Positions 732 through 39,437 of a DNA stretch of 46,145 bases are shown here, one piece after another. The position numbers and the translations under genes are program-made. Numbering within the stretch: position 1 is the stretch's first letter; each line of letters begins with the position of its first letter. The notes beneath the pieces are model-generated. The model made no database searches and was not told the DNA's origin. It worked only from the letters and a program-made list of their open reading frames with translations. The DNA is from an uncultured virus (IMG/VR IMGVR_UViG_3300042894_007218) (Duplodnaviria > Heunggongvirae > Uroviricota > Caudoviricetes): IMG/VR virus record IMGVR_UViG_3300042894_007218; one strand, given 5' to 3'.

Positions 732-763
732 TTTGGTAGATTTAAAACATTTTACTAATTTTG
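732..763 (+). promoter_or_regulatory. Bacteroidota sigma-A-type promoter for leader 1/tRNA operon 1
   Basis: TTTG-N20-TAATTTTG. Confidence 0.75.
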
Positions 764-820
764 TATAAGATAATGACAAATAATTAAAAAGAGAGTTTAA
801 CAATTCAATATATAACAACA

Positions 821-922
821 ATGAGAGCAATTCGCACACATAAGCATTTTAGTAAATCGTCGAAGTGGTTTAGTCACTCCGGTTCGGTACTAAAAGAGTA
901 TTGCTCAAATTTAGAAGTGTAA
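821..922 (+). CDS. attenuator leader peptide 1 (MRAIRTHKHFSKSSKWFSHSGSVLKEYCSNLEV)
   Basis: 33-aa ORF; R/H/K/F/S/W run matches downstream tRNAs; GGTTCGG (881-887) complements the terminator arm. Confidence 0.85.
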   Translation: MRAIRTHKHFSKSSKWFSHSGSVLKEYCSNLEV

Positions 923-947
923 TAACTTATAAAAGACAATATAATTT

Positions 948-980
948 AACCCGAACCTCGAAAGAAGTTCGGGTTTTTTT
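948..980 (+). terminator. intrinsic terminator (attenuator 1)
   Basis: AACCCGAAC/GTTCGGGTT stem plus T7 run. Confidence 0.9.
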
Positions 981-995
981 ATTAATAAAAAAATT

Positions 996-1068
996 GGAAT
1001 GGTGGCAGATTAGGTAATTGCGCTGGACTGAAAATCCAGAGGAGTGGGCTCGATACCCACCCGTTCCA
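996..1068 (+). tRNA. tRNA-Phe(GAA)
   Basis: Cloverleaf; ctgga CT GAA AA tccag. Confidence 0.9.
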
Positions 1069-1078
1069 CAAAAAATAT

Positions 1079-1154
1079 GATCTCGTAGCTCAGCAGGTTT
1101 TAGAGCACCTCACTTTTAATGAGGGGGTCGTGGGTTCGAGCCCCACCGGGATCA
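1079..1154 (+). tRNA. tRNA-Lys(TTT)
   Basis: cctca CT TTT AA tgagg; TTCGA T-loop. Confidence 0.95.
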
Positions 1155-1156
1155 CT

Positions 1157-1229
1157 GTGAATGTAGCTCAATTGGTAGAGCGCTTGATTGTGATTCAAGA
1201 GGTAGCGGGATCGTAACCCGTCATTCACC
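1157..1229 (+). tRNA. tRNA-His(GTG)
   Basis: cttga TT GTG AT tcaag; C73. Confidence 0.9.
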
Positions 1230-1233
1230 AAAT

Positions 1234-1304
1234 ACGTCATACAGACAAGGTGTCGGTCAGGTCTCCAAAACCTCGACGGCTGGGTTCAATTCCTAGATGG
1301 CGTG
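1234..1304 (+). tRNA. tRNA-Trp(CCA)
   Basis: aggt CT CCA AA acct; acceptor acgtcat/atggcgt. Confidence 0.8.
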
Positions 1305-1309
1305 CTAAT

Positions 1310-1382
1310 AGTTTCATCGTCTAACCGAATAGGACACACGGCTACGAACCGTGAAGTGAGAGTTTGAGTCTTTCTGAAACTA
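1310..1382 (+). tRNA. tRNA-Arg(ACG)
   Basis: cacgg CT ACG AA ccgtg; atypical T-loop TTTGA. Confidence 0.8.
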
Positions 1383-1390
1383 CAAAATAA

Positions 1391-1477
1391 GGAGAGTTGG
1401 TAGAGTGGTTGATTACACCGGTCTTGAAAACCGGAAAACTTGAAAGGGTTTCCAGGGTTCGAATCCCTGACTCTCCT
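1391..1477 (+). tRNA. tRNA-Ser(TGA)
   Basis: ccggt CT TGA AA accgg; long variable arm. Confidence 0.95.
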
Positions 1478-1488
1478 CTAAATTTTAC

Positions 1489-8861: not shown

Positions 8862-8933
8862 ATGAATAAATTAGCAACATATTATTACGAAGCCGAGGGT
8901 TTAAACCCAGTCGGACGAGTTTGTGTGTTGTAA
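8862..8933 (+). CDS. attenuator leader peptide 2 (MNKLATYYYEAEGLNPVGRVCVL)
   Basis: YYYEAE run precedes tRNA-Glu and tRNA-Tyr; antiterminator 8910-8924. Confidence 0.85.
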   Translation: MNKLATYYYEAEGLNPVGRVCVL

Positions 8934-8952
8934 CGATTTGATTACTTTAAAC

Positions 8953-8984
8953 AAACCCAGTCCGATTTTGGTCTGGGTTTTTTT
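8953..8984 (+). terminator. intrinsic terminator (attenuator 2)
   Basis: AAACCCAG..CCGA/TTGG..CTGGGTTT plus T-run. Confidence 0.85.
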
Positions 8985-9007
8985 ATTTTAAAAATATTTT
9001 AAAAAGA

Positions 9008-9039
9008 TTTGGTGTATTTGAAAAGTTACCTTATCTTTG
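9008..9039 (+). promoter_or_regulatory. Bacteroidota-type promoter between attenuator 2 and tRNA-Glu
   Basis: TTTG-N20-TATCTTTG. Confidence 0.7.
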
Positions 9040-9094
9040 TAAAACAAAAGAGGTAAATATAAATCCAAGTAACCCCTTGGTTTTTTACTAACTT

Positions 9095-9166
9095 GGTCCC
9101 ATCGTCTAACGGTTAGGACGTTAGGTTTTCATCCTAGAAATCGGAGTTCGATTCTCCGTGGGACTA
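9095..9166 (+). tRNA. tRNA-Glu(TTC)
   Basis: ttagg TT TTC AT cctag. Confidence 0.95.
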
Positions 9167-9177
9167 CAAAATTTATT

Positions 9178-9258
9178 GGAAGGTGGCAGAGTGGTTAAAT
9201 GCGGCAGACTGTAAATCTGCTCTCTTACGAGTACGGGGGTTCGAATCCCTCCCTTCCA
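9178..9258 (+). tRNA. tRNA-Tyr(GTA)
   Basis: gcaga CT GTA AA tctgc; long variable arm. Confidence 0.95.
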
Positions 9259-9314
9259 ACAAAATTTAAAAGAGGAAATAAACTTTTTATATATAATAAC
9301 ATAAAATAGAAACA

Positions 9315-9398
9315 ATGAAAAATTTAACTAACATAGGGGCAGTAATTATAGCGATAGGCGCGGGGCGTTTTATCGATAGACTGAGTTATGTTATGTAA
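9315..9398 (+). CDS. attenuator leader peptide 3 (MKNLTNIGAVIIAIGAGRFIDRLSYVM)
   Basis: ATA x3, GGG x2, GGC, GCA, GCG x2 precede Ile(TAT)/Ala/Gly tRNAs; antiterminator 9378-9387. Confidence 0.85.
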   Translation: MKNLTNIGAVIIAIGAGRFIDRLSYVM

Positions 9399-9419
9399 AT
9401 TTTGACTTTACATATATTT

Positions 9420-9451
9420 AAAACCCAGTCTCGAAAAGACTGGGTTTTTTT
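9420..9451 (+). terminator. intrinsic terminator (attenuator 3)
   Basis: AAAACCCAGTCT/AGACTGGGTTTT plus T-run. Confidence 0.9.
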
Positions 9452-9455
9452 ATTT

Positions 9456-9536
9456 CGGCAAGTACCGTTGGTGTCTTATACACACTATACACGTAGCGGG
9501 AAGTTGAAAACGTGGGTTCGAATCCCACCTTGCCGA
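9456..9536 (+). tRNA. atypical tRNA-Ile(TAT)-like RNA lacking a canonical D-arm
   Basis: Acceptor cggcaag/cttgccg; T-arm gtggg TTCGAAT cccac; gtgt CT TAT AC acac. Confidence 0.6.
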
Positions 9537-9542
9537 CAAATT

Positions 9543-9616
9543 GGGCCATTGGTGAAGAAGGCTATCATACCTGGTTTGCACCCAGGAGTCACGAGTTCGA
9601 GGCTCGTATGTGTCCA
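9543..9616 (+). tRNA. tRNA-Ala(TGC)
   Basis: cctgg TT TGC AC ccagg; G3:U70 present; 1-nt bulge in acceptor. Confidence 0.85.
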
Positions 9617-9622
9617 CAATTT

Positions 9623-9710
9623 GCAGGTATCGCCTAGTTGGTCGATGGCTCCGGATTTCCAATCCGGTCAGATAAGGTTCACAACGTGGGTTCGAATCCC
9701 ACTACCTGCT
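9623..9710 (+). tRNA. tRNA-Gly(TCC) with enlarged variable region
   Basis: ccgga TT TCC AA tccgg; U73. Confidence 0.85.
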
Positions 9711-9767
9711 CAAACCTTGCCAAGATTGGGGTCGTGAGTATTCTCCACAAAAATTAATATATACTAT

Positions 9768-10882: not shown

Positions 10883-11446
10883 ATGAAGTATCTAAAGAGA
10901 TTTAACGAAAATATATCAGTTTATGATCCTAAATGGGAAGAATTGCTTCCTGATACTATTACTGTTTTGAAAGGTCAAGACCACGGTATAGATAAGTGGG
11001 TATATAGTAAGGGGAATATTATGTTAAACTCCGATATGTTACAAATAACATATGATATAGATGCTGATATGGCACCTGATACATTAGAAATAGATATCTA
11101 TATGGTAAGAGATACTGCTTTTGATAAAAGCGGTGATTCTACGACTGTTGTAAAATCTGGCACTTTTGAATATGATGATAACATAGGAGAAAAATTGCCA
11201 AATTTAAGACTTACTGTAGACATCACTTTTGGTGATGAGATGGCATGTGAATTTACAATTGATAAAGTTAATGGTGTAAGACTATTTCAAGATACCACTT
11301 ATGGTTCTAAATTTGATCCTTCGAATACCATTTTTGCGCTAAGTGATGAAAGTCTGAAAAAATTTGTTGATTTTTTAAATAGATTCAATCACGGTGTCAA
11401 TCTAAAATTAGATGATTTCAATTTTTTAAAACAAAATAAAAATTAA
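10883..11446 (+). CDS. hypothetical protein, paralog of 26148-26909
   Basis: MKYLKRFNE motif; blocks shared with 26148-26909. Confidence 0.8.
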   Translation: MKYLKRFNENISVYDPKWEELLPDTITVLKGQDHGIDKWVYSKGNIMLNSDMLQITYDIDADMAPDTLEIDIYMVRDTAFDKSGDSTTVVKSGTFEYDDNIGEKLPNLRLTVDITFGDEMACEFTIDKVNGVRLFQDTTYGSKFDPSNTIFALSDESLKKFVDFLNRFNHGVNLKLDDFNFLKQNKN

Positions 11447-11457
11447 TCCTATAAAGC

Positions 11458-11580
11458 ATGAATAGATTTATTGAGATAGTATCTGAATATCCATTTACTT
11501 GTTTGTGGCTATCAGTAATTATTATTTCTATTATTTCTATGATAAGTGAATCAATTAAGAAACGTAAAAATAGAGATTAA
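11458..11580 (+). CDS. small single-pass membrane protein (40 aa)
   Basis: Fills the gap; hydrophobic core plus basic tail; stop overlaps the next ATG. Confidence 0.55.
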   Translation: MNRFIEIVSEYPFTCLWLSVIIISIISMISESIKKRKNRD

Positions 11581-12236
11581 TGGAATTATTTCATTTCGAT
11601 ATTGAAACCGCTGGAAAATGGCGAGATTTTGATGAATTTGTGGAAAACGATAAAAGAGGATCTGACCTATTTAAATCTAAATGGGAAAGAATGAGATGGT
11701 CTGAAAAGTATAAAGACCTAAATGAAGCTTATTTAGATAATTCTGGTATCATATCAGCTTATGGAAGGATTGTTTGTATCTCTTTTGGGTATATTGACAA
11801 TGATGGTCAAAAAAGAATTTCTTCATTCTATGGTGATGATGAAAAAGATATTGTTGAATCATTTAACAATTTACTATCTAAGATAGAAAAAAAAGCTTTC
11901 AATCTTTCTGGTTTTAGAATAAATCATTTTGATATTCCTTGGGTTTTACACAAGTGTCACAAATATGGCATTAAACCCGCCAATATTATTTATGTATATG
12001 ATAAAAAACCCTGGGATATGAGAATTACAGATATGTCTGATGATTGGAGGCAAAAGTTTGCTTGGGCGTTCTCATTTGATGAAATGTGTTATGAATTAGG
12101 TGTAGATTCTCCAAAGCAAGAAATGAATGGTTCTGAAGTTCATAAGTGTTTTTGGAATGGTGAATTAGATAAAATAAAGAGATATTGTGAAAGTGACGTA
12201 TCTGCTTCTATTGATGTTTCTTTAAAGTTATATTAA
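11580..12236 (+). CDS. DEDD 3'-5' exonuclease (PolB-proofreading-like)
   Basis: FDIET, N.FDIP, YCESDV motifs. Confidence 0.85.
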   Translation: MELFHFDIETAGKWRDFDEFVENDKRGSDLFKSKWERMRWSEKYKDLNEAYLDNSGIISAYGRIVCISFGYIDNDGQKRISSFYGDDEKDIVESFNNLLSKIEKKAFNLSGFRINHFDIPWVLHKCHKYGIKPANIIYVYDKKPWDMRITDMSDDWRQKFAWAFSFDEMCYELGVDSPKQEMNGSEVHKCFWNGELDKIKRYCESDVSASIDVSLKLY

Positions 12237-14093: not shown

Positions 14094-14125
14094 TTTGGTA
14101 GAACTGAAACTTTTATCTAATTTTG
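14094..14125 (+). promoter_or_regulatory. Bacteroidota-type promoter for leader 4
   Basis: TTTG-N20-TAATTTTG. Confidence 0.75.
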
Positions 14126-14183
14126 TATAAAATAATGACAAAAAATTAAAAAGAAAGATTTAACTTTCAATATATACAAAACA

Positions 14184-14300
14184 ATGAAAACGAATTTGAC
14201 AAATATGACGATGAACCTAACACTCAATGTGGTGAATATTACGTTATGTAATATTAGAACTTCTGAGGGTTCCTTCCTATTTAGTAAATTTGTCTTATAA
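14184..14300 (+). CDS. attenuator leader peptide 4 (MKTNLTNMTMNLTLNVVNITLCNIRTSEGSFLFSKFVL)
   Basis: Codons 3-26 are only T/N/L/M/V/I/C/R, matching the downstream tRNAs; antiterminator 14262-14272. Confidence 0.88.
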   Translation: MKTNLTNMTMNLTLNVVNITLCNIRTSEGSFLFSKFVL

Positions 14301-14328
14301 AGTGTAAATTTATAACTAAATATAAAAG

Positions 14329-14365
14329 AACCCTCGGATAGAAAAATCTGAGGGTTTTTTGTTTT
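14329..14365 (+). terminator. intrinsic terminator (attenuator 4)
   Basis: AACCCTCGGAT/ATCTGAGGGTT plus T-run. Confidence 0.9.
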
Positions 14366-14370
14366 ATACT

Positions 14371-14442
14371 GGAGTAGTAGCTTAATGGTGAAGCAATCGG
14401 CTGTTAACCGATAGATTACAGGTTCGAGTCCTGTCTACTCCG
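14371..14442 (+). tRNA. tRNA-Asn(GTT)
   Basis: atcgg CT GTT AA ccgat. Confidence 0.95.
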
Positions 14443-14448
14443 CTAAAT

Positions 14449-14521
14449 AGTCTCCTCGTTCAACTGGACAGGACATCGCTCTTCTAAAGCGAGGATATGG
14501 GTTCGAATCCCGTGGAGACTA
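14449..14521 (+). tRNA. tRNA-Arg(TCT)
   Basis: tcgct CT TCT AA agcga. Confidence 0.9.
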
Positions 14522-14527
14522 CTAATT

Positions 14528-14598
14528 ACTCTGATGGCGTAAAGGTAGCGTATCTCTTTTACATGGAGAAGGCAGTGGTTCGATACCACTTCGGAGTA
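14528..14598 (+). tRNA. tRNA-Val(TAC)
   Basis: tctct TT TAC AT ggaga. Confidence 0.9.
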
Positions 14599-14606
14599 CA
14601 AAAAAT

Positions 14607-14681
14607 TGGAATATAGCTCAGTTGGTTTAGAGCGCCGATCTGATACGTCGGAGGTCACTGGTTCGAGCCCAGTTATTCCAA
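14607..14681 (+). tRNA. tRNA-Ile(GAT)
   Basis: ccgat CT GAT AC gtcgg. Confidence 0.95.
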
Positions 14682-14688
14682 CAAACAG

Positions 14689-14771
14689 GCACCTGTGGTC
14701 GAGTGGAGTAGAAATACGGAAGGCACTGGATTGCAAACCCAGTCACGGGGGTTCAAGTCCCTCCAGGTGCT
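14689..14771 (+). tRNA. tRNA-Cys(GCA) with enlarged D-loop
   Basis: ctgga TT GCA AA cccag; U73. Confidence 0.85.
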
Positions 14772-14778
14772 CAAATAT

Positions 14779-14850
14779 GCTGATGTCGTATAATGGTCAT
14801 TACATTGCCTTTGTAACGCAAATATGTGGGTTCGACTCCCTCCATCAGCT
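14779..14850 (+). tRNA. tRNA-Thr(TGT)
   Basis: ttgcc TT TGT AA cgcaa. Confidence 0.85.
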
Positions 14851-14856
14851 CTAAAA

Positions 14857-14928
14857 TGTCTCGTAGTTTAATGGGAAAACGTTACCTTGACATGGTAAAG
14901 AGAGTGGGATCGTTACCCACCGAGACAA
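14857..14928 (+). tRNA. tRNA-Val(GAC)
   Basis: ttacc TT GAC AT ggtaa. Confidence 0.85.
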
Positions 14929-14953
14929 CAAAATAATGGATGGTGATTGAAAG

Positions 14954-15024
14954 AGTTACTTCGTTTAATGGAAAAACAATTGACTTCTAATCAATCTACA
15001 CTGGTTCGATTCCAGTAGTATATT
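14954..15024 (+). tRNA. tRNA-Arg(TCT)-like element with broken acceptor stem
   Basis: attga CT TCT AA tcaat; good D and T arms; only about 4 acceptor pairs. Confidence 0.55.
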
Positions 15025-15056
15025 ACTCTTCAAAGCTTTCCTCCGTTATTTTATTT

Positions 15057-15139
15057 GCCTTGGTGGTGAAATTGGTAGCACACGCCAGATTTAGGATCTG
15101 GTGCCGAAAGGCGTGAGAGTTCGAGTCTCTCTCAAGGTA
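15057..15139 (+). tRNA. tRNA-Leu(TAG)
   Basis: ccaga TT TAG GA tctgg; long variable arm. Confidence 0.95.
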
Positions 15140-15145
15140 CAAAAT

Positions 15146-15231
15146 GCTCCTGTGGCGAAATTGGCAGCACGCGTTGGACTTAAAATCCAATGGTCATAGT
15201 GACCGTGCCGGTTCGAGTCCGGCCAGGAGTA
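15146..15231 (+). tRNA. tRNA-Leu(TAA)
   Basis: ttgga CT TAA AA tccaa; long variable arm. Confidence 0.95.
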
Positions 15232-15265
15232 CAAAATTAATATATAATCAAAAAAGAAAAGTATT

Positions 15266-26145: not shown

Positions 26146-26150
26146 TATTG

Positions 26151-26909
26151 ATGAGATTTCTGAAAGGTTTCAATGAGGCGGTTGGAATAGTCAACTTAGG
26201 TTCTAATATCTCTCAAGAGAGAATTCCTAATCTACAACACGTTGGTGAGCCAATTGAAGATGGTGATAATATTTCAATATTTCAACAAGACTGGTTTGAA
26301 AAGTTATTACCTGATACTATAAAAGTACACTCACATCCAAATCTAAAAAAACTCAATTTTGATCAAAGTTTGACTAATATTGATACTGAGAATAAGACTT
26401 ATGTTCTTAAAAAGAATGATTGTACTATTGATGGTGATTTAGTACAATTTAATTACCACCAAAATACTTATGATAAACCAGAAGATATAGTTGATGATGG
26501 TGAGCCAGATATGTTAGAGTTTGATATACATTTTGTTAAAAATGATAGAGGAATAAAACTATTAGTAGATATTACTTATGGTGATAACATGGCTTATGAG
26601 TTTTCAATTGAGACACCTAATAAAATTAACATAATACACTATACCGGAAAAGGTTCGATGTATGATAGTGAAACACATTGGGGTTTCTGCGAGGATACTA
26701 TTAAAGATTTAGTCAAATTCTTTAATGCTTTTAATCATGGAATTAACATTACTGAAGAAGACTTTAATTTTTTAGATTCTGATAAAGAAAGCTACCAGCA
26801 TAATACACACGACCAAAAGCACCTTTATAATGATGAATCAGATTTAGTAAGATTTGGAAATTCATCAAAGGTAAAAAGTTTTGAAAGTTTTATTAAAAAA
26901 ACTTTGTAA
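26151..26909 (+). CDS. hypothetical protein, paralog of 10883-11446
   Basis: MRFLKGFNE start; blocks shared with 10883-11446. Confidence 0.8.
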   Translation: MRFLKGFNEAVGIVNLGSNISQERIPNLQHVGEPIEDGDNISIFQQDWFEKLLPDTIKVHSHPNLKKLNFDQSLTNIDTENKTYVLKKNDCTIDGDLVQFNYHQNTYDKPEDIVDDGEPDMLEFDIHFVKNDRGIKLLVDITYGDNMAYEFSIETPNKINIIHYTGKGSMYDSETHWGFCEDTIKDLVKFFNAFNHGINITEEDFNFLDSDKESYQHNTHDQKHLYNDESDLVRFGNSSKVKSFESFIKKTL

Positions 26910-26933
26910 AATAAAAACTTTTTTCTATTTTTG
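26903..26933 (+). promoter_or_regulatory. Bacteroidota-type promoter for leader 5
   Basis: TTTG-N19-TATTTTTG. Confidence 0.65.
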
Positions 26934-26981
26934 TATAGAAAATTGACAAATAGAGAAAAATAATTCAATATATAATTAACA

Positions 26982-27074
26982 ATGAAAAACGTAATTGTAA
27001 ATATCGTAGTAAATCAACAACCGCAGGATCAGGATCCAGTCGGAGTGACTAACTATGTTTTTACATTGAGTTAA
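26982..27074 (+). CDS. attenuator leader peptide 5 (MKNVIVNIVVNQQPQDQDPVGVTNYVFTLS)
   Basis: QQPQDQDP run precedes Asp/Pro/Gln tRNAs; antiterminator 27046-27054. Confidence 0.88.
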   Translation: MKNVIVNIVVNQQPQDQDPVGVTNYVFTLS

Positions 27075-27094
27075 GATATTAACAAATAAATTGT

Positions 27095-27129
27095 AAACCC
27101 GGTTAGTCAAAAACTAATCGGGTTTTTTT
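27095..27129 (+). terminator. intrinsic terminator (attenuator 5)
   Basis: AAACCCGGTTAGT/ACTAATCGGGTTT plus T7. Confidence 0.9.
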
Positions 27130-27136
27130 GTTTTTA

Positions 27137-27208
27137 GGTCTATTAGGGTAGTGGTTATCCTTCCTCACTGTCTATGAGGAGACGCGAGTTCGATTCTCGC
27201 ATAGACCG
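27137..27208 (+). tRNA. tRNA-Asp(GTC)
   Basis: cctca CT GTC TA tgagg; G73. Confidence 0.92.
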
Positions 27209-27272
27209 CACAAAGTAACTGTTTGGCGGTGAAAGTACTCTTTAGAGAATAGAGTAAAATAATTCTCAAAAA

Positions 27273-27346
27273 CTAGGTGTAGCTCAGTTTGGTAGAGCGG
27301 GGAGTTTGGGACTCTCAGGCCGCAGGTTCGAACCCTGTCACTTAGA
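27273..27346 (+). tRNA. tRNA-Pro(TGG)
   Basis: gggag TT TGG GA ctctc. Confidence 0.92.
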
Positions 27347-27354
27347 CTTAAAAT

Positions 27355-27429
27355 TGTCCTGTAGTGAAATTGGCATCACGTATCATTTTGGCTGATAAGT
27401 TTGAGGTTCGAACCCTCACAGGACAACCA
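27355..27429 (+). tRNA. tRNA-Gln(TTG)
   Basis: tatca TT TTG GC tgata; U1-A72; encoded CCA. Confidence 0.92.
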
Positions 27430-27456: not shown

Positions 27457-27849
27457 TTAACTTTCAGAAATCTCAATCCACCTTCCATCTGATAAAAATT
27501 GAAACTTTCCAATAAAATGATAACGATTTCCCCATTCCTCTGGTGATATTATTGAAAGAAATTCTTCGGTTTCTTTTTGGTATAGATAGTATGATTGACC
27601 CGGTATTGGTTGAAAATTATGTTTAGCTAAATATAATCTTTCATTAATTGAAATTTCATTCATTAATTTTTGATATTCTTTTTGTATTTCTTCATACTTT
27701 GAGGTGTAGTGATGTTTTAATTTATTGGTTTTTTCAATTTTAAAAAGAGTGATATCATCTGGTGAAAATTTTTGAGAACCAATTTCAGTTGGATAAGATT
27801 TTAATCTTCTATCTGGAACATAAGAATCAGGAAGGTTTTTTTCAGTCAT
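27457..27849 (-). CDS. DUF2452-like protein
   Basis: YPTEIG...AKHNFQPIPGQSYYLY...LSIISPEEW (recalled family pattern). Confidence 0.7.
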   Translation of the reverse strand: MTEKNLPDSYVPDRRLKSYPTEIGSQKFSPDDITLFKIEKTNKLKHHYTSKYEEIQKEYQKLMNEISINERLYLAKHNFQPIPGQSYYLYQKETEEFLSIISPEEWGNRYHFIGKFQFLSDGRWIEISES

Positions 27850-36916: not shown

Positions 36917-37215
36917 TTTGGTGGATTTGAAATATTGCCTTATCTTTGTATTAACAAACGATGGGGAAGTTCCAGAGCGGCAAATGGAGTTACGTTGTAA
37001 CGTGACTGGTCTCAATAGATCTTCGTAGGTTCGAGTCCTAACCTTTCCCACAAAAAGATTTGGTAGATTGAAAAATTTTACTTATCTTTGTAAAACAAAT
37101 CAGAAACGTCTGATATAATTAAAAGTTCTTTGAAAAACGGTTTAGTACTAAACAAACTAAACCAAAAAAAAAGTAAAAAAAGATTTGGTCGAAATAAAAA
37201 AAGTTCATATCTTTG
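36917..37215 (+). promoter_or_regulatory. three tandem Bacteroidota-type promoters (36917-36948, 37059-37090, 37184-37215)
   Basis: TTTGG-start, N20 spacer, TATCTTTG in all three. Confidence 0.8.
36963..37050 (+). tRNA. tRNA-Tyr(GTA)-like with irregular anticodon loop
   Basis: Tyr-type D-arm and variable arm; gttacg TTGTAA cgtgac (6-nt loop). Confidence 0.6.
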
Positions 37216-37253: not shown

Positions 37254-37326
37254 CGCGGGATAGAGCAGTCGGTAGCTCGCAAGGCTCATAACCTTGAGGT
37301 CGTTGGTTCGAGTCCAGCTCCCGCTA
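37254..37326 (+). tRNA. tRNA-fMet(CAT), second type
   Basis: caagg CT CAT AA ccttg; C1:U72 mismatch. Confidence 0.9.
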
Positions 37327-37374
37327 CAAAAGAGTTCTCAACGGAGAACATCGTTCTTTGAAATATTGTCTTTA

Positions 37375-38205
37375 ACAGTCGGTTTCGGCTGACTGTGAAA
37401 AGAAGGGCGGCTTATAGTCCTTAAAATAAACCGTGAAAGCGGGATAAAGTGAACAGAATAGCTAAATCTGTTTGCGTCTTGAACCCTCGGGTTTGAGGTC
37501 GAGTAAGCAAGTGGGATACCACAACTCCTTATTAATCGAGGGTAACACTGTAGATGAAATGGATTTGTGACCAGGCAATTGTAGATTGTTTGGTTGACTT
37601 CGGAAGAAGAATAGGAATAACCCATAGGTCTGTTGCGAGAAGTGTTGACTCACCGGTCTTCATCATTGCGGAGCCCAACTTAAGAGGTGTCTTAAAGTCG
37701 AAAGACAATCAGGTGTACGGGTGGTGCTGTTACTTGACACTCTTCTCTCTACCAGGAGAGTTGTTGTGGAGATATCTTAAAGAGTTGTGATGGAGGCATC
37801 ACACGGAGTAGTTCAGTATTCTTGAGGTCAAAAGCTTTGAGAGCTGAGAGGTAACCACTACTTCGACAAATCTACAAAGCACTAAATTTCACTATTAATG
37901 AAACATTTAAAAAGGAAATCGAAAGTGTTACCTAGTTACTGATGAAAGGTACCTACCCAGTCGTGAGTGTTCACGGCCACTGATGCTCGAAAGGCTGATG
38001 TGATTTCATCGAAAAGCTTATAGAGGGTCGAACCTCGAGTCAGCTCGCAAGGTTGAGTAAGTGGATTAAATGGAGAGTAATTAGTAACTTAAGGAGTGGT
38101 TAGTCTAACTAACCGGTACTGACAGAGTACTTCTCAAAAGGAAGTGGATAAGAAGGGAAACCATAATCTAACAAAAGTTCTGTCGTCAAAGGCGTAATCT
38201 CAGCC
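37375..38205 (+). ncRNA. large structured RNA, probably GOLLD
   Basis: About 830 nt, GC-richer, no credible ORF, many GNRA/UUCG-capped hairpins, flanked by tRNAs, ends in hairpin plus T-run. Confidence 0.65.
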
Positions 38206-38258
38206 TTTTTTGGTCGGTTCATAGGAACCTCTGAGAGCGAGACTCAGACCGACCTCAA

Positions 38259-39272: not shown

Positions 39273-39376
39273 GGTCCTTTAGCTCAGCAGGTTAGAGCAA
39301 CTGACTCTAAGTGTTATAAGTAAATTAACACAACAATATAATCAGTAGGTCCACGGTTCGAGCCCGTGAGGGACCA
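39273..39376 (+). tRNA. tRNA-Ile2-like gene interrupted by a 30-nt insertion in the anticodon loop
   Basis: Ile2-type body ggtccttTAGCTCAG...; actga CTC[30 nt]ATAA tcagt. Confidence 0.75.
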
Positions 39377-39437
39377 CTAAAACAAAAACTCATCAAATTA
39401 TTTGGTGAGTTTTTTTATTTTAATTATATTTGCTATT

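Follow-up and report, generated by a model that had tools for sequence, protein, structure and literature searches.

What controls three transfer RNA (tRNA) genes that lie directly behind a transcription terminator? The question is raised by the tRNA-Asp/Pro/Gln cluster in a stretch of 46,145 nucleotides (nt) from an uncultured virus of the Caudoviricetes (IMG/VR record IMGVR_UViG_3300042894_007218). This stretch, referred to below as the window, is AT-rich and phage-like. A short open reading frame (ORF), rich in Gln, Pro and Asp codons, precedes the terminator. We interpret the arrangement, here called unit 5, as a trp-style, ribosome-mediated leader-peptide transcription attenuator that would gate the three tRNA genes by sensing how fast their cognate codons are decoded, and we assign this interpretation a probability of roughly 0.8. 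The phage thus probably makes tRNA-Asp, tRNA-Pro and tRNA-Gln only when ribosomes read Gln, Pro and Asp codons slowly, as judged from the sequence comparisons described here. An attenuator had been proposed in a preliminary description of this DNA, and comparative evidence now supports the proposal: the layout recurs, leaders match the tRNAs behind them, the competing RNA strands are conserved, and the tRNA genes have no room for a promoter of their own.

The features of unit 5 and of its counterparts are collected in Table 1. The leader ORF lies between a promoter motif and the terminator, with no other gene intervening. The run of eight successive Gln, Pro or Asp codons claimed in the preliminary description is present, in the frame of this ORF, and all eight codons are readable by the three downstream anticodons (Asp GTC, Pro TGG and Gln TTG). 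Asp, Pro and Gln together account for 12.6% of residues in the long ORFs of the window, and the expectation for an uninterrupted run of eight within 29 residues is approximately 1.4e-6. Between the terminator and tRNA-Asp there is no space for a promoter, so these tRNAs would be made only by read-through. The window contains 23 tRNA genes by ARAGORN and two more by Rfam.

Two alternative pairings of the leader RNA had also been predicted. The first, between TGACTAACT (27046-27054, region 2) and GGTTAGTCA (27101-27109), was found, with nine pairs of which one is G-U. GGTTAGTCA consists of 7 nt of the terminator 5' arm and 2 nt of its loop; the arm (27095-27107) includes GTTAGT and is therefore shared between the terminator stem and region 2. 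As to the second, CGTAGT (27005-27010) and TCA (27014-27016) pair with the region 2 strand in the minimum-energy fold, but this upstream pairing is weak in the window.

In the proposed mechanism, transcription would begin at the promoter at 26903-26933 and a ribosome would start on the 30-codon leader. With Gln, Pro and Asp codons decoded fast, the ribosome would pass over 27046-27054 to the stop codon at 27072. A ribosome at the stop codon would cover 27046-27054, or separate that strand from 27101-27109, allowing the terminator at 27095-27125 to fold, and transcription would then end at least 4 nt before tRNA-Asp. Were charged tRNA-Gln, -Pro or -Asp in short supply, the ribosome would stall within 27015-27038 and hold region 1 (26997-27016) unpaired, leaving 27046-27054 free to capture 27101-27109 as the latter was made. 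The terminator would be blocked and RNA polymerase would continue into the three tRNA genes. In a leader without a ribosome, region 1 would pair with region 2, and termination would result. Since the tRNAs produced would relieve the slow-decoding signal, the circuit would act as negative feedback on decoding capacity for those codons. We infer translation of the ORF, stalling of the ribosome and the response of read-through from the arrangement and the comparisons that follow.

Table 1. Coordinates of the attenuator-like units in the window, and related leaders and tRNA-like genes in other genomes (nt, nucleotides; bp, base pairs; p, binomial probability for leader residues belonging to the unit's own tRNA set)
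Feature	Position	Strand	Description
Unit 1	732-1478	+	Promoter motif 732-763; leader 821-922 (MRAIRTHKHFSKSSKWFSHSGSVLKEYCSNLEV, MRAIRTHKHFSKSSKWFSHS...); terminator 948-975; tRNAs Phe, Lys, His, Arg(ACG), Ser(TGA); 18/32 leader residues in set, p = 9.5e-5
Unit 2	8862-9260	+	Leader 8862-8933 (MNKLATYYYEAEGLNPVGRVCVL, ...YYYEAEG...); terminator 8953-8980; tRNAs Glu, Tyr; 5/22 leader residues in set, p = 0.084
Unit 3	9315-9711	+	Leader 9315-9398 (MKNLTNIGAVIIAIGAGRFIDRLSYVM, ...IGAVIIAIGAG..., three ATA codons); terminator 9420-9448; odd tRNA-like element 9456-9536, then tRNAs Ala, Gly; 6/26 leader residues in set, p = 0.081
Unit 4	14094-15232	+	Promoter motif 14094-14125; leader 14184-14300 (MKTNLTNMTMNLTLNVVNITLCNIRTSEGSFLFSKFVL, MKTNLTNMTMNLTLNVVNITLCNIR...); terminator 14327-14358; tRNAs Asn, Arg(TCT), Val, Ile, Thr, Val, Arg, Leu, Leu; 24/37 leader residues in set, p = 0.0014; antiterminator z = -6.06
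Unit 5, promoter-like site, Bacteroidetes type	26903-26933	+	TTTG, 19 nt, TATTTTTG = TAnnTTTG; 48 nt 5' of leader ATG
Unit 5, leader ORF	26982-27074	+	ATG start, 30 codons, MKNVIVNIVVNQQPQDQDPVGVTNYVFTLS, TAA stop
Unit 5, region 1 (leader-hairpin 5' strand)	26997-27016	+	GTAAA ... CGTAGT ... TCA; overlaps Val/Ile/Asn codons; from minimum-energy folds
Unit 5, sensor block	27015-27038	+	Codons 12-19: CAA CAA CCG CAG GAT CAG GAT CCA
Unit 5, region 2 (antiterminator strand)	27046-27054	+	TGACTAACT; inside ORF, 18 nt 5' of stop codon
Unit 5, intrinsic terminator	27095-27125	+	13-bp stem (5 G-C), loop CAAAA (5 nt); T tract 27123-27135
Unit 5, tRNA-Asp (GTC)	27137-27209	+	Starts 11 nt after terminator stem
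Unit 5, tRNA-Pro (TGG)	27273-27347	+	
Unit 5, tRNA-Gln (TTG)	27355-27429	+	
Leader in LR745206.1			MTTTQQIQQQQINQTD, own terminator; three Gln tRNAs; separate poly-Gln leader
Leader in LR756502.1			MTTSFQQQQQQQINRTD, own terminator; four Gln tRNAs; separate poly-Gln leader
Leader in three genomes			SSSRSSS or SSRSRSS; tRNAs Arg(ACG), Ser(TGA)
Leader in LR756504.1			MKAMILSLCLSLSLSLQK... (LSLCLSLSLSL); tRNAs Leu, Leu, Ser, Cys, Ser, Ser, Leu, Leu
Leader in LR756504.1			MKTIAMIIRMRIIRPKMLG (IIRMRIIR); tRNAs Arg(TCT), Ile, Met
Leader in LR756504.1			MKTKKQQYKQYQPQYK... (KKQQYKQYQPQYK); tRNAs Tyr, Tyr, Gln, Lys x4
Leader in LR756504.1			...FWHFHF...; tRNAs His, Phe
tRNA-like genes with 2- or 4-letter anticodons, stretches of relatives	L129 1337; L135 1297; L147 802; L149 1104; L151 881; L153 1066; L154 1037		

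The order of promoter, short ORF, terminator and tRNA genes occurs five times in the window, always on the + strand. The nearest records in the phage collection were LR745206.1, LR756502.1 and LR756504.1, each labelled 'uncultured phage' and 635-642 kb in length; we take the LR accession series to be the published huge-phage genomes with predicted Bacteroidetes hosts. Units were surveyed in these three records and in four IMG/VR contigs, in the stretches around tRNA matches. One fixed rule was applied: a terminator-like hairpin, an ATG-initiated ORF, 12-45 codons long, whose end is 10-45 nt 5' of the hairpin, and a tRNA no more than 900 nt behind it. The rule gave 37 units in seven related huge phage genomes, the window included, and together these units cover tRNAs for all 20 amino acids. 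Their leaders are 16-39 codons long and end in TAA (33 leaders), TGA (3) or TAG (1), and in all 37 units the terminator stem begins 18-33 nt (median 23) after the stop codon.

The association was also examined from the side of the hairpins. Among 35 terminator-like hairpins ending no more than 120 nt 5' of a tRNA, 33 are preceded, at a distance of 10-45 nt from the stem, by an ATG ORF of 12-45 codons. For comparison, shuffling the upstream segments produced an ATG ORF of 16 codons or more in that range in 1397 of 10000 cases. The two hairpins without a leader ORF are at 9061-9084 in the window and at 1101-1123 in stretch L130. A further 25 tRNA calls lie behind no unit; 12 of these are Met, 7 show an odd anticodon loop and the remaining 6 are others. 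G003/L122, near-identical to G004/L121, was left out of the counts. At the syntenic site G002 (L123, L140) lacks both leader and tRNA; it contributed only two tRNAs, both behind no unit, and was dropped.

Leader composition followed the identity of the downstream tRNAs. Residues of the unit's own tRNAs were enriched in 26 of 37 leaders (binomial p < 0.05), and the own tRNA set ranked first for 32 of 36 leaders. When leaders and tRNA sets were permuted within genomes, the true assignment was the single best in all six genomes that have several units: 1/120 for the window, G004 and G001, and 1/5040 for LR745206.1, LR756502.1 and LR756504.1. The single-unit genome G005 stood outside this test. 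The cognate residue fraction was 0.39 in the frame of the ORF vs 0.18 and 0.13 in the other two frames, and 364 of 411 cognate codons were readable by a downstream anticodon under strict wobble rules. LR756504.1 is a more distant genome in which the tRNAs are grouped differently, and its leaders have changed to match (Table 1). It is somewhat probable, in our judgement, that these huge phages of Bacteroidetes carry a panel of isoacceptor-specific decoding-speed sensors, one for each tRNA cluster and each gating its own tRNAs by demand.

The Gln/Pro/Asp leader was then followed through its own family, in loci found by means of the protein encoded upstream (26148-26906; 253 amino acids, no Pfam match), a search that is blind to the leader. 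In viral contigs, three of four such loci have the leader, the terminator and Gln, Asp and Pro tRNAs, and the fourth has neither leader nor tRNA. In metagenome contigs, leader and terminator are present at 10 of 20 loci. Gln and Asp tRNAs follow at nine of these ten (with Pro in six), and in the remaining one the contig ends. The other ten loci have neither leader nor tRNA, although in four of them the downstream sequence is shorter than 750 nt. This joint presence or absence indicates that leader and tRNAs are gained and lost together. Homologous leader ORFs were identified in 13 other sequences, giving 14 distinct sequences with the window, and Asp, Pro and Gln tRNAs lie behind this leader family wherever the sequence extends. 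A scan of viral contigs for an exact 14-nt pattern returned 119 stretches, of which one was a homologous leader (L100) and the rest were chance matches.

The 14 homologues retain the Q-P-Q-D-Q-D core and vary synonymously within it (CCA/CCG/CCT, CAA/CAG and GAT/GAC). Outside the core, codon differences are mostly non-synonymous (943 vs 332 synonymous in pairwise comparison), as expected of a peptide without a function of its own. These data bear on the possibility that the ORF encodes a small protein with its own role, or arose by chance, and that its resemblance to the tRNA set is a by-product. ORFs of similar size do appear in 14% of shuffled upstream segments, and the peptide is conserved towards both its N- and its C-terminus. 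However, the excess of non-synonymous differences argues against such a protein, the invariant parts coincide with the pairing strands and do not form a protein-like pattern, and both the permutation and the frame tests contradict a by-product. We regard this explanation as very unlikely.

The competing strands of the attenuator were examined in all 37 units. Pairing between a leader and the 5' arm of its own terminator has a mean z of -2.8 relative to dinucleotide shuffles, and z is below -2 in 28 units. In every unit the leader strand involved is located 3' of the sensor, in the 3' portion of the leader, and its sequence differs completely among paralogous units. When terminator arms were swapped, the own arm outperformed all unrelated arms in 12 of 37 units and ranked in the best tenth in 23. 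For unit 5, the own arm beat 32 of 32 unrelated arms, and the duplex of region 2 with the terminator arm had an energy of -13.0 kcal/mol (z = -2.56), a value reached by 4 of 200 dinucleotide shuffles. With the terminator 3' arm omitted, most units fold into the antiterminator; with it included, they fold into the leader hairpin and the terminator. The whole leader of unit 5 folds at z = -3.65.

In alignments of homologues, the antiterminator (G[AG]CTAAC with GTTAGTC) is paired in 97.3% of 112 cells across the 14 sequences, compared with at most 47.5% when the strands are slid. Its two strands vary little or not at all, and the remainder of the terminator covaries. In the 5' arm of the terminator GTTAGTC is invariant, while its 3'-arm partner occurs in several versions and the spacer drifts. 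This is the pattern expected of a strand that has two partners. When the terminator itself was aligned in six sequences, 78 of 78 cells were paired, and 2 of the 13 pairs carried compensatory changes. For the core helices between regions 1 and 2 (GTAAA:TTTAC and AGTTA:TAACT), 82.8% of 169 cells pair vs at most 42% when slid, a score reached by 434 of 500 shuffles. L169 (same leader as G004) and L176 (same leader as L160) were left out of one alignment (A4).

The N-terminal run of Val, Ile and Asn codons had been guessed to be structural, which fits what was observed: NVNI..VN is kept in homologues and holds the hairpin 5' strands GTAAA and AGTTA. An opening of the form M-[KRTN]-[TNAKR] is common to 36 of 37 leaders of all specificities, and NI is found within residues 5-9 in 17 of 37. 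As the run belongs to a shared opening and carries the 5' strands of the leader hairpin, we consider it a common module and not a second sensor.

Several results weigh against an attenuator and are gathered here. The seven genomes are kin, and the 37 units are therefore not independent events. In 11 of 37 units enrichment for the own tRNA residues had p > 0.05, and 47 of 411 cognate codons cannot be read by the downstream tRNAs, mostly AGT Ser codons and AGA at position 2. For unit 5 the enrichment of Asp, Pro and Gln over the whole peptide is modest (8 of 29 residues, binomial p = 0.024). The antiterminator z is above -2 in 9 of 37 units, and only 13 of 37 leaders have the strict promoter motif no more than 130 nt upstream. 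Of the eight antiterminator pairs in the 14 homologues, five never vary, three vary on one side and none varies on both. Because no pair has changed on both sides, the support for the antiterminator is conservation and not covariation, and its conservation values were also reached by shuffles. The helices between regions 1 and 2 likewise showed no covariation support in the homologue alignment, and the leader hairpin predicted for the window itself is only 69.6% paired across six sequences.

Folding with a blocked ribosome footprint was equivocal for unit 5. The exact antiterminator was the minimum-energy fold at three of eight stall positions; at four others it lay 0.1-0.8 kcal/mol above a competitor, which uses 26943-26947, possibly outside the transcript. 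With the full transcript, the terminator always had the lowest energy regardless of ribosome position, so the switch would have to choose kinetically, as classical attenuators do. RNA-library contigs from four runs that match the window all come from relatives, at 85-99% likeness. One of these, 702 nt in length, contains the promoter and the leader and then tRNA-Asp, with 142 other letters between them. This contig starts approximately 200 nt 5' of the promoter, may represent DNA or upstream read-through, and is uninformative on 3' ends and on regulation.

The folding results agree with a different account, in which the hairpin is a constitutive leaky terminator that ends or stabilises upstream transcripts and lets a fixed fraction of read-through pass, with the ORF playing no regulatory part. 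The terminator is the minimum-energy fold of the full transcript at every ribosome position, the antiterminator lacks covariation, and the hairpin could also serve the upstream gene, whose stop (26909) is about 190 nt 5' of it. Yet a promoter motif and a conserved ORF are placed between that gene and the terminator. A leaky terminator also leaves unexplained why leader composition tracks the tRNA set in six genomes, why GTTAGTC is invariant beside a varying 3' partner, and why leader and tRNAs are jointly present or absent at 20 syntenic loci. We consider this account improbable.

Regulation by attenuation would depend on a promoter ahead of the leader and on its translation. TTTG with TAnnTTTG is taken here as the Bacteroidetes promoter consensus. 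The motif TTTG-N17-21-TAnnTTTG has 17 matches in the window vs 3.43 +/- 1.92 in shuffled sequence (17 was reached in 0 of 100 shuffles), and the matches at 732, 14094 and 26903 lie 5' of leaders 1, 4 and 5. No Shine-Dalgarno sequence was found at the starts of the 37 leaders. An A is present at -3 in 34 of 37 leaders, including the leader at 26982-27074, and at +4 in all 37. PMC6847099 describes Bacteroidetes as lacking Shine-Dalgarno sequences and using A at -3. The start context agrees with that description and makes translation of the leaders plausible; the frame specificity of the tRNA match and the synonymous variation in the sensor are further indirect support. The host of the phage is probably a member of the Bacteroidetes.

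If unit 5 is an attenuator, its signal could be something other than the supply of these particular tRNAs. The same device might report amino-acid starvation or a general slowing of translation. Classical leaders such as those of trp, his and thr respond to amino-acid supply, which counts in favour of this alternative, and a stalled ribosome cannot distinguish a missing amino acid from a missing tRNA. Sensor codons, however, separate isoacceptors. CGC is used before Arg(ACG), although it makes up 1% of Arg codons in the long ORFs of the window; AGA is used before Arg(TCT), and ATA before Ile(TAT). The sensors are also rich in rare G-ending codons. In codon boxes read by downstream U34 tRNAs, for which G-ending codons need wobble, 83 of 213 sensor codons (39%) end in G across the 37 leaders vs 16% in long ORFs, and the five window units have 19 NNG vs 15 NNA sensor codons. 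The G-ending bias could confer greater sensitivity or could reflect RNA pairing needs. Finally, as additional tRNA does not relieve amino-acid starvation, a starvation sensor at this position would bring no benefit. For these reasons a signal of starvation or of general slowing is unlikely.

Direct sensing of tRNA by the RNA, in the manner of a T-box and without a ribosome, was considered as well. In such a model, uncharged tRNAs would dock on the codon run through their anticodons, and the antiterminator would be stabilised as a result. T-box riboswitches bind one uncharged tRNA directly, without an ORF. They resemble the phage unit in sensing tRNA status and in choosing between terminator and antiterminator before translation-related genes, and the codons of unit 5 are indeed complementary to the downstream anticodons and are followed by a terminator/antiterminator pair. 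The phage unit differs in having an ORF: its cognate triplets share a single reading frame that opens with ATG in a conserved start context and closes with a stop codon. Searches of the whole window with gathering cut-offs, and of 26880-27140 at E <= 10, matched the leader to neither the T-box nor another Rfam family, and we know of no precedent for eight contiguous specifiers for three different tRNAs. A T-box-like mechanism appears extremely improbable.

Attenuation controlled by a leader peptide, the interpretation preferred here, has well-known relatives. The enterobacterial attenuators include trpL, hisL, pheL and leuL and the multivalent thrL and ilv leaders. Like them, unit 5 combines a promoter motif, a short ORF with a regulatory codon run, predicted 1:2, 2:3 and 3:4 pairings that would exclude one another and an intrinsic terminator, and, as in the thr and ilv leaders, a single leader of a phage unit would sense several amino acids. 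Unlike them, the phage units would regulate tRNA genes and not biosynthetic enzymes, giving feedback on decoding capacity. The phage antiterminator strand, moreover, lies inside the ORF, before the stop codon, and the units lack a Shine-Dalgarno sequence, have a Bacteroidetes-type promoter and form a paralogous panel with different codon sets. To our knowledge, all described members of this class of attenuators regulate enzymes of amino-acid biosynthesis or aminoacyl-tRNA synthetases. The genes behind the unit 5 terminator are three tRNA genes, and not biosynthesis or synthetase genes.

The closest parallels are leaders of synthetase genes. The pheM leader controls the pheST operon. In bacilli, a His leader precedes hisS/hisZ paralogues, according to PMC2965389. 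In both cases a gene of the translation apparatus is controlled by the reading of cognate leader codons, as would be so for the phage units; the product there is an aminoacyl-tRNA synthetase, and here the tRNAs themselves. In PMC2965389, the terms 'tRNA gene' and 'Bacteroidetes' each have 0 occurrences.

In the presumed host phylum, the Bacteroid-trp motif (Rfam RF01692) is a candidate cis-regulatory element of Bacteroidetes, according to a table in PMC2864571. It would be a leader-type attenuator regulating trp genes, where the phage units would gate tRNAs. A leader-type attenuator in this phylum would mean that the host machinery is able to run such switches. At gathering level, only tRNA and GOLLD matched in the window, and RF01692 gave no match. 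At E <= 10 in 26880-27140, the best match was the trpB motif (25 bits vs a cut-off of 59), and Trp_leader RF00513 scored 15.5 vs 41. No description of leader-peptide attenuation of tRNA genes, in phages or in cells, was found in full-text literature searches, which about 1.7 million PubMed Central articles and the subscription journals lie outside.

If the attenuator interpretation is correct, a logic known for amino-acid synthesis genes and synthetases would extend to tRNA transcription in the form of codon-specific negative feedback. The usual view takes phage tRNA genes for constitutive add-ons that match codon usage. Attenuation would instead give a functional reason for the grouping of tRNA genes by amino-acid sets, and phage tRNAs would be a replacement for a failing host pool and not a response to fixed codon bias. 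Such demand-driven supply would replace host tRNAs during infection, for example after host shut-off or the action of anticodon nucleases. As a natural library of parts, the units would also offer synthetic biology at least 37 short stalling sensors, each codon-specific and paired with a matching terminator.

Other features were observed in and around the units. Behind the terminator of unit 2 and before tRNA-Glu, there is an extra promoter motif (9008-9039) and a second terminator-like hairpin (9061-9084) without an ORF. On account of these two elements, tRNA-Glu and tRNA-Tyr may have an additional entry that is unregulated or differently regulated. In unit 3, the tRNA-like element at 9456-9536 (+) scored 35.6 bits with Rfam; ARAGORN detected it only once the threshold was lowered, and its anticodon loop is abnormal in that call. 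The element occupies the place of the tRNA-Ile(TAT) of relatives, and the leader 5' of it contains three ATA codons.

Within the tRNA cluster of unit 5, the conserved spacer between tRNA-Asp and tRNA-Pro (27208-27274) has no significant fold (z = -0.17). A gene that converges on the tRNA-Gln end, at 27457-27849 (-), encodes a DUF2452 protein (Pfam PF10504, E = 1.3e-14). In contig G004 (L121 4051-4695, equivalent to L133 at approximately 11050-11700), an ORF for a 214-amino-acid HNH endonuclease (Pfam PF01844, 21.7 bits vs a cut-off of 21.4) is located between the terminator and the Gln/Pro/Asp tRNAs, and the distance from gate to tRNA is 728 nt there.

Elsewhere in the window, tRNA-Met (37254-37327) has three tandem promoter motifs upstream (36917, 37059 and 37184) and no leader ORF. 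A sub-threshold tRNA-like sequence at 36963-37050 (+) sits between the first two of these motifs; it scored 24.9 bits with Rfam vs a threshold of 29, and ARAGORN reported it at a lowered threshold with an ambiguous anticodon. About 480 nt behind tRNA-Met lies a full-length GOLLD RNA (Rfam RF02032, 285.7 bits) at 37804-38206 (+). The tRNA at 39273-39377 (+; Rfam 56.7 bits) has the anticodon CTA, of amber-suppressor type and labelled Pyl by ARAGORN, and a 30-nt intron in the anticodon loop; ARAGORN finds it only with introns allowed. Its anticodon hints at recoding of TAG in the phage. In relatives, ARAGORN also reported tRNA-like genes with 'anticodons' of two or four letters (Table 1), mostly beside tRNA-Met, and these could carry introns or be otherwise unusual, as is the tRNA at 39273 in the window.

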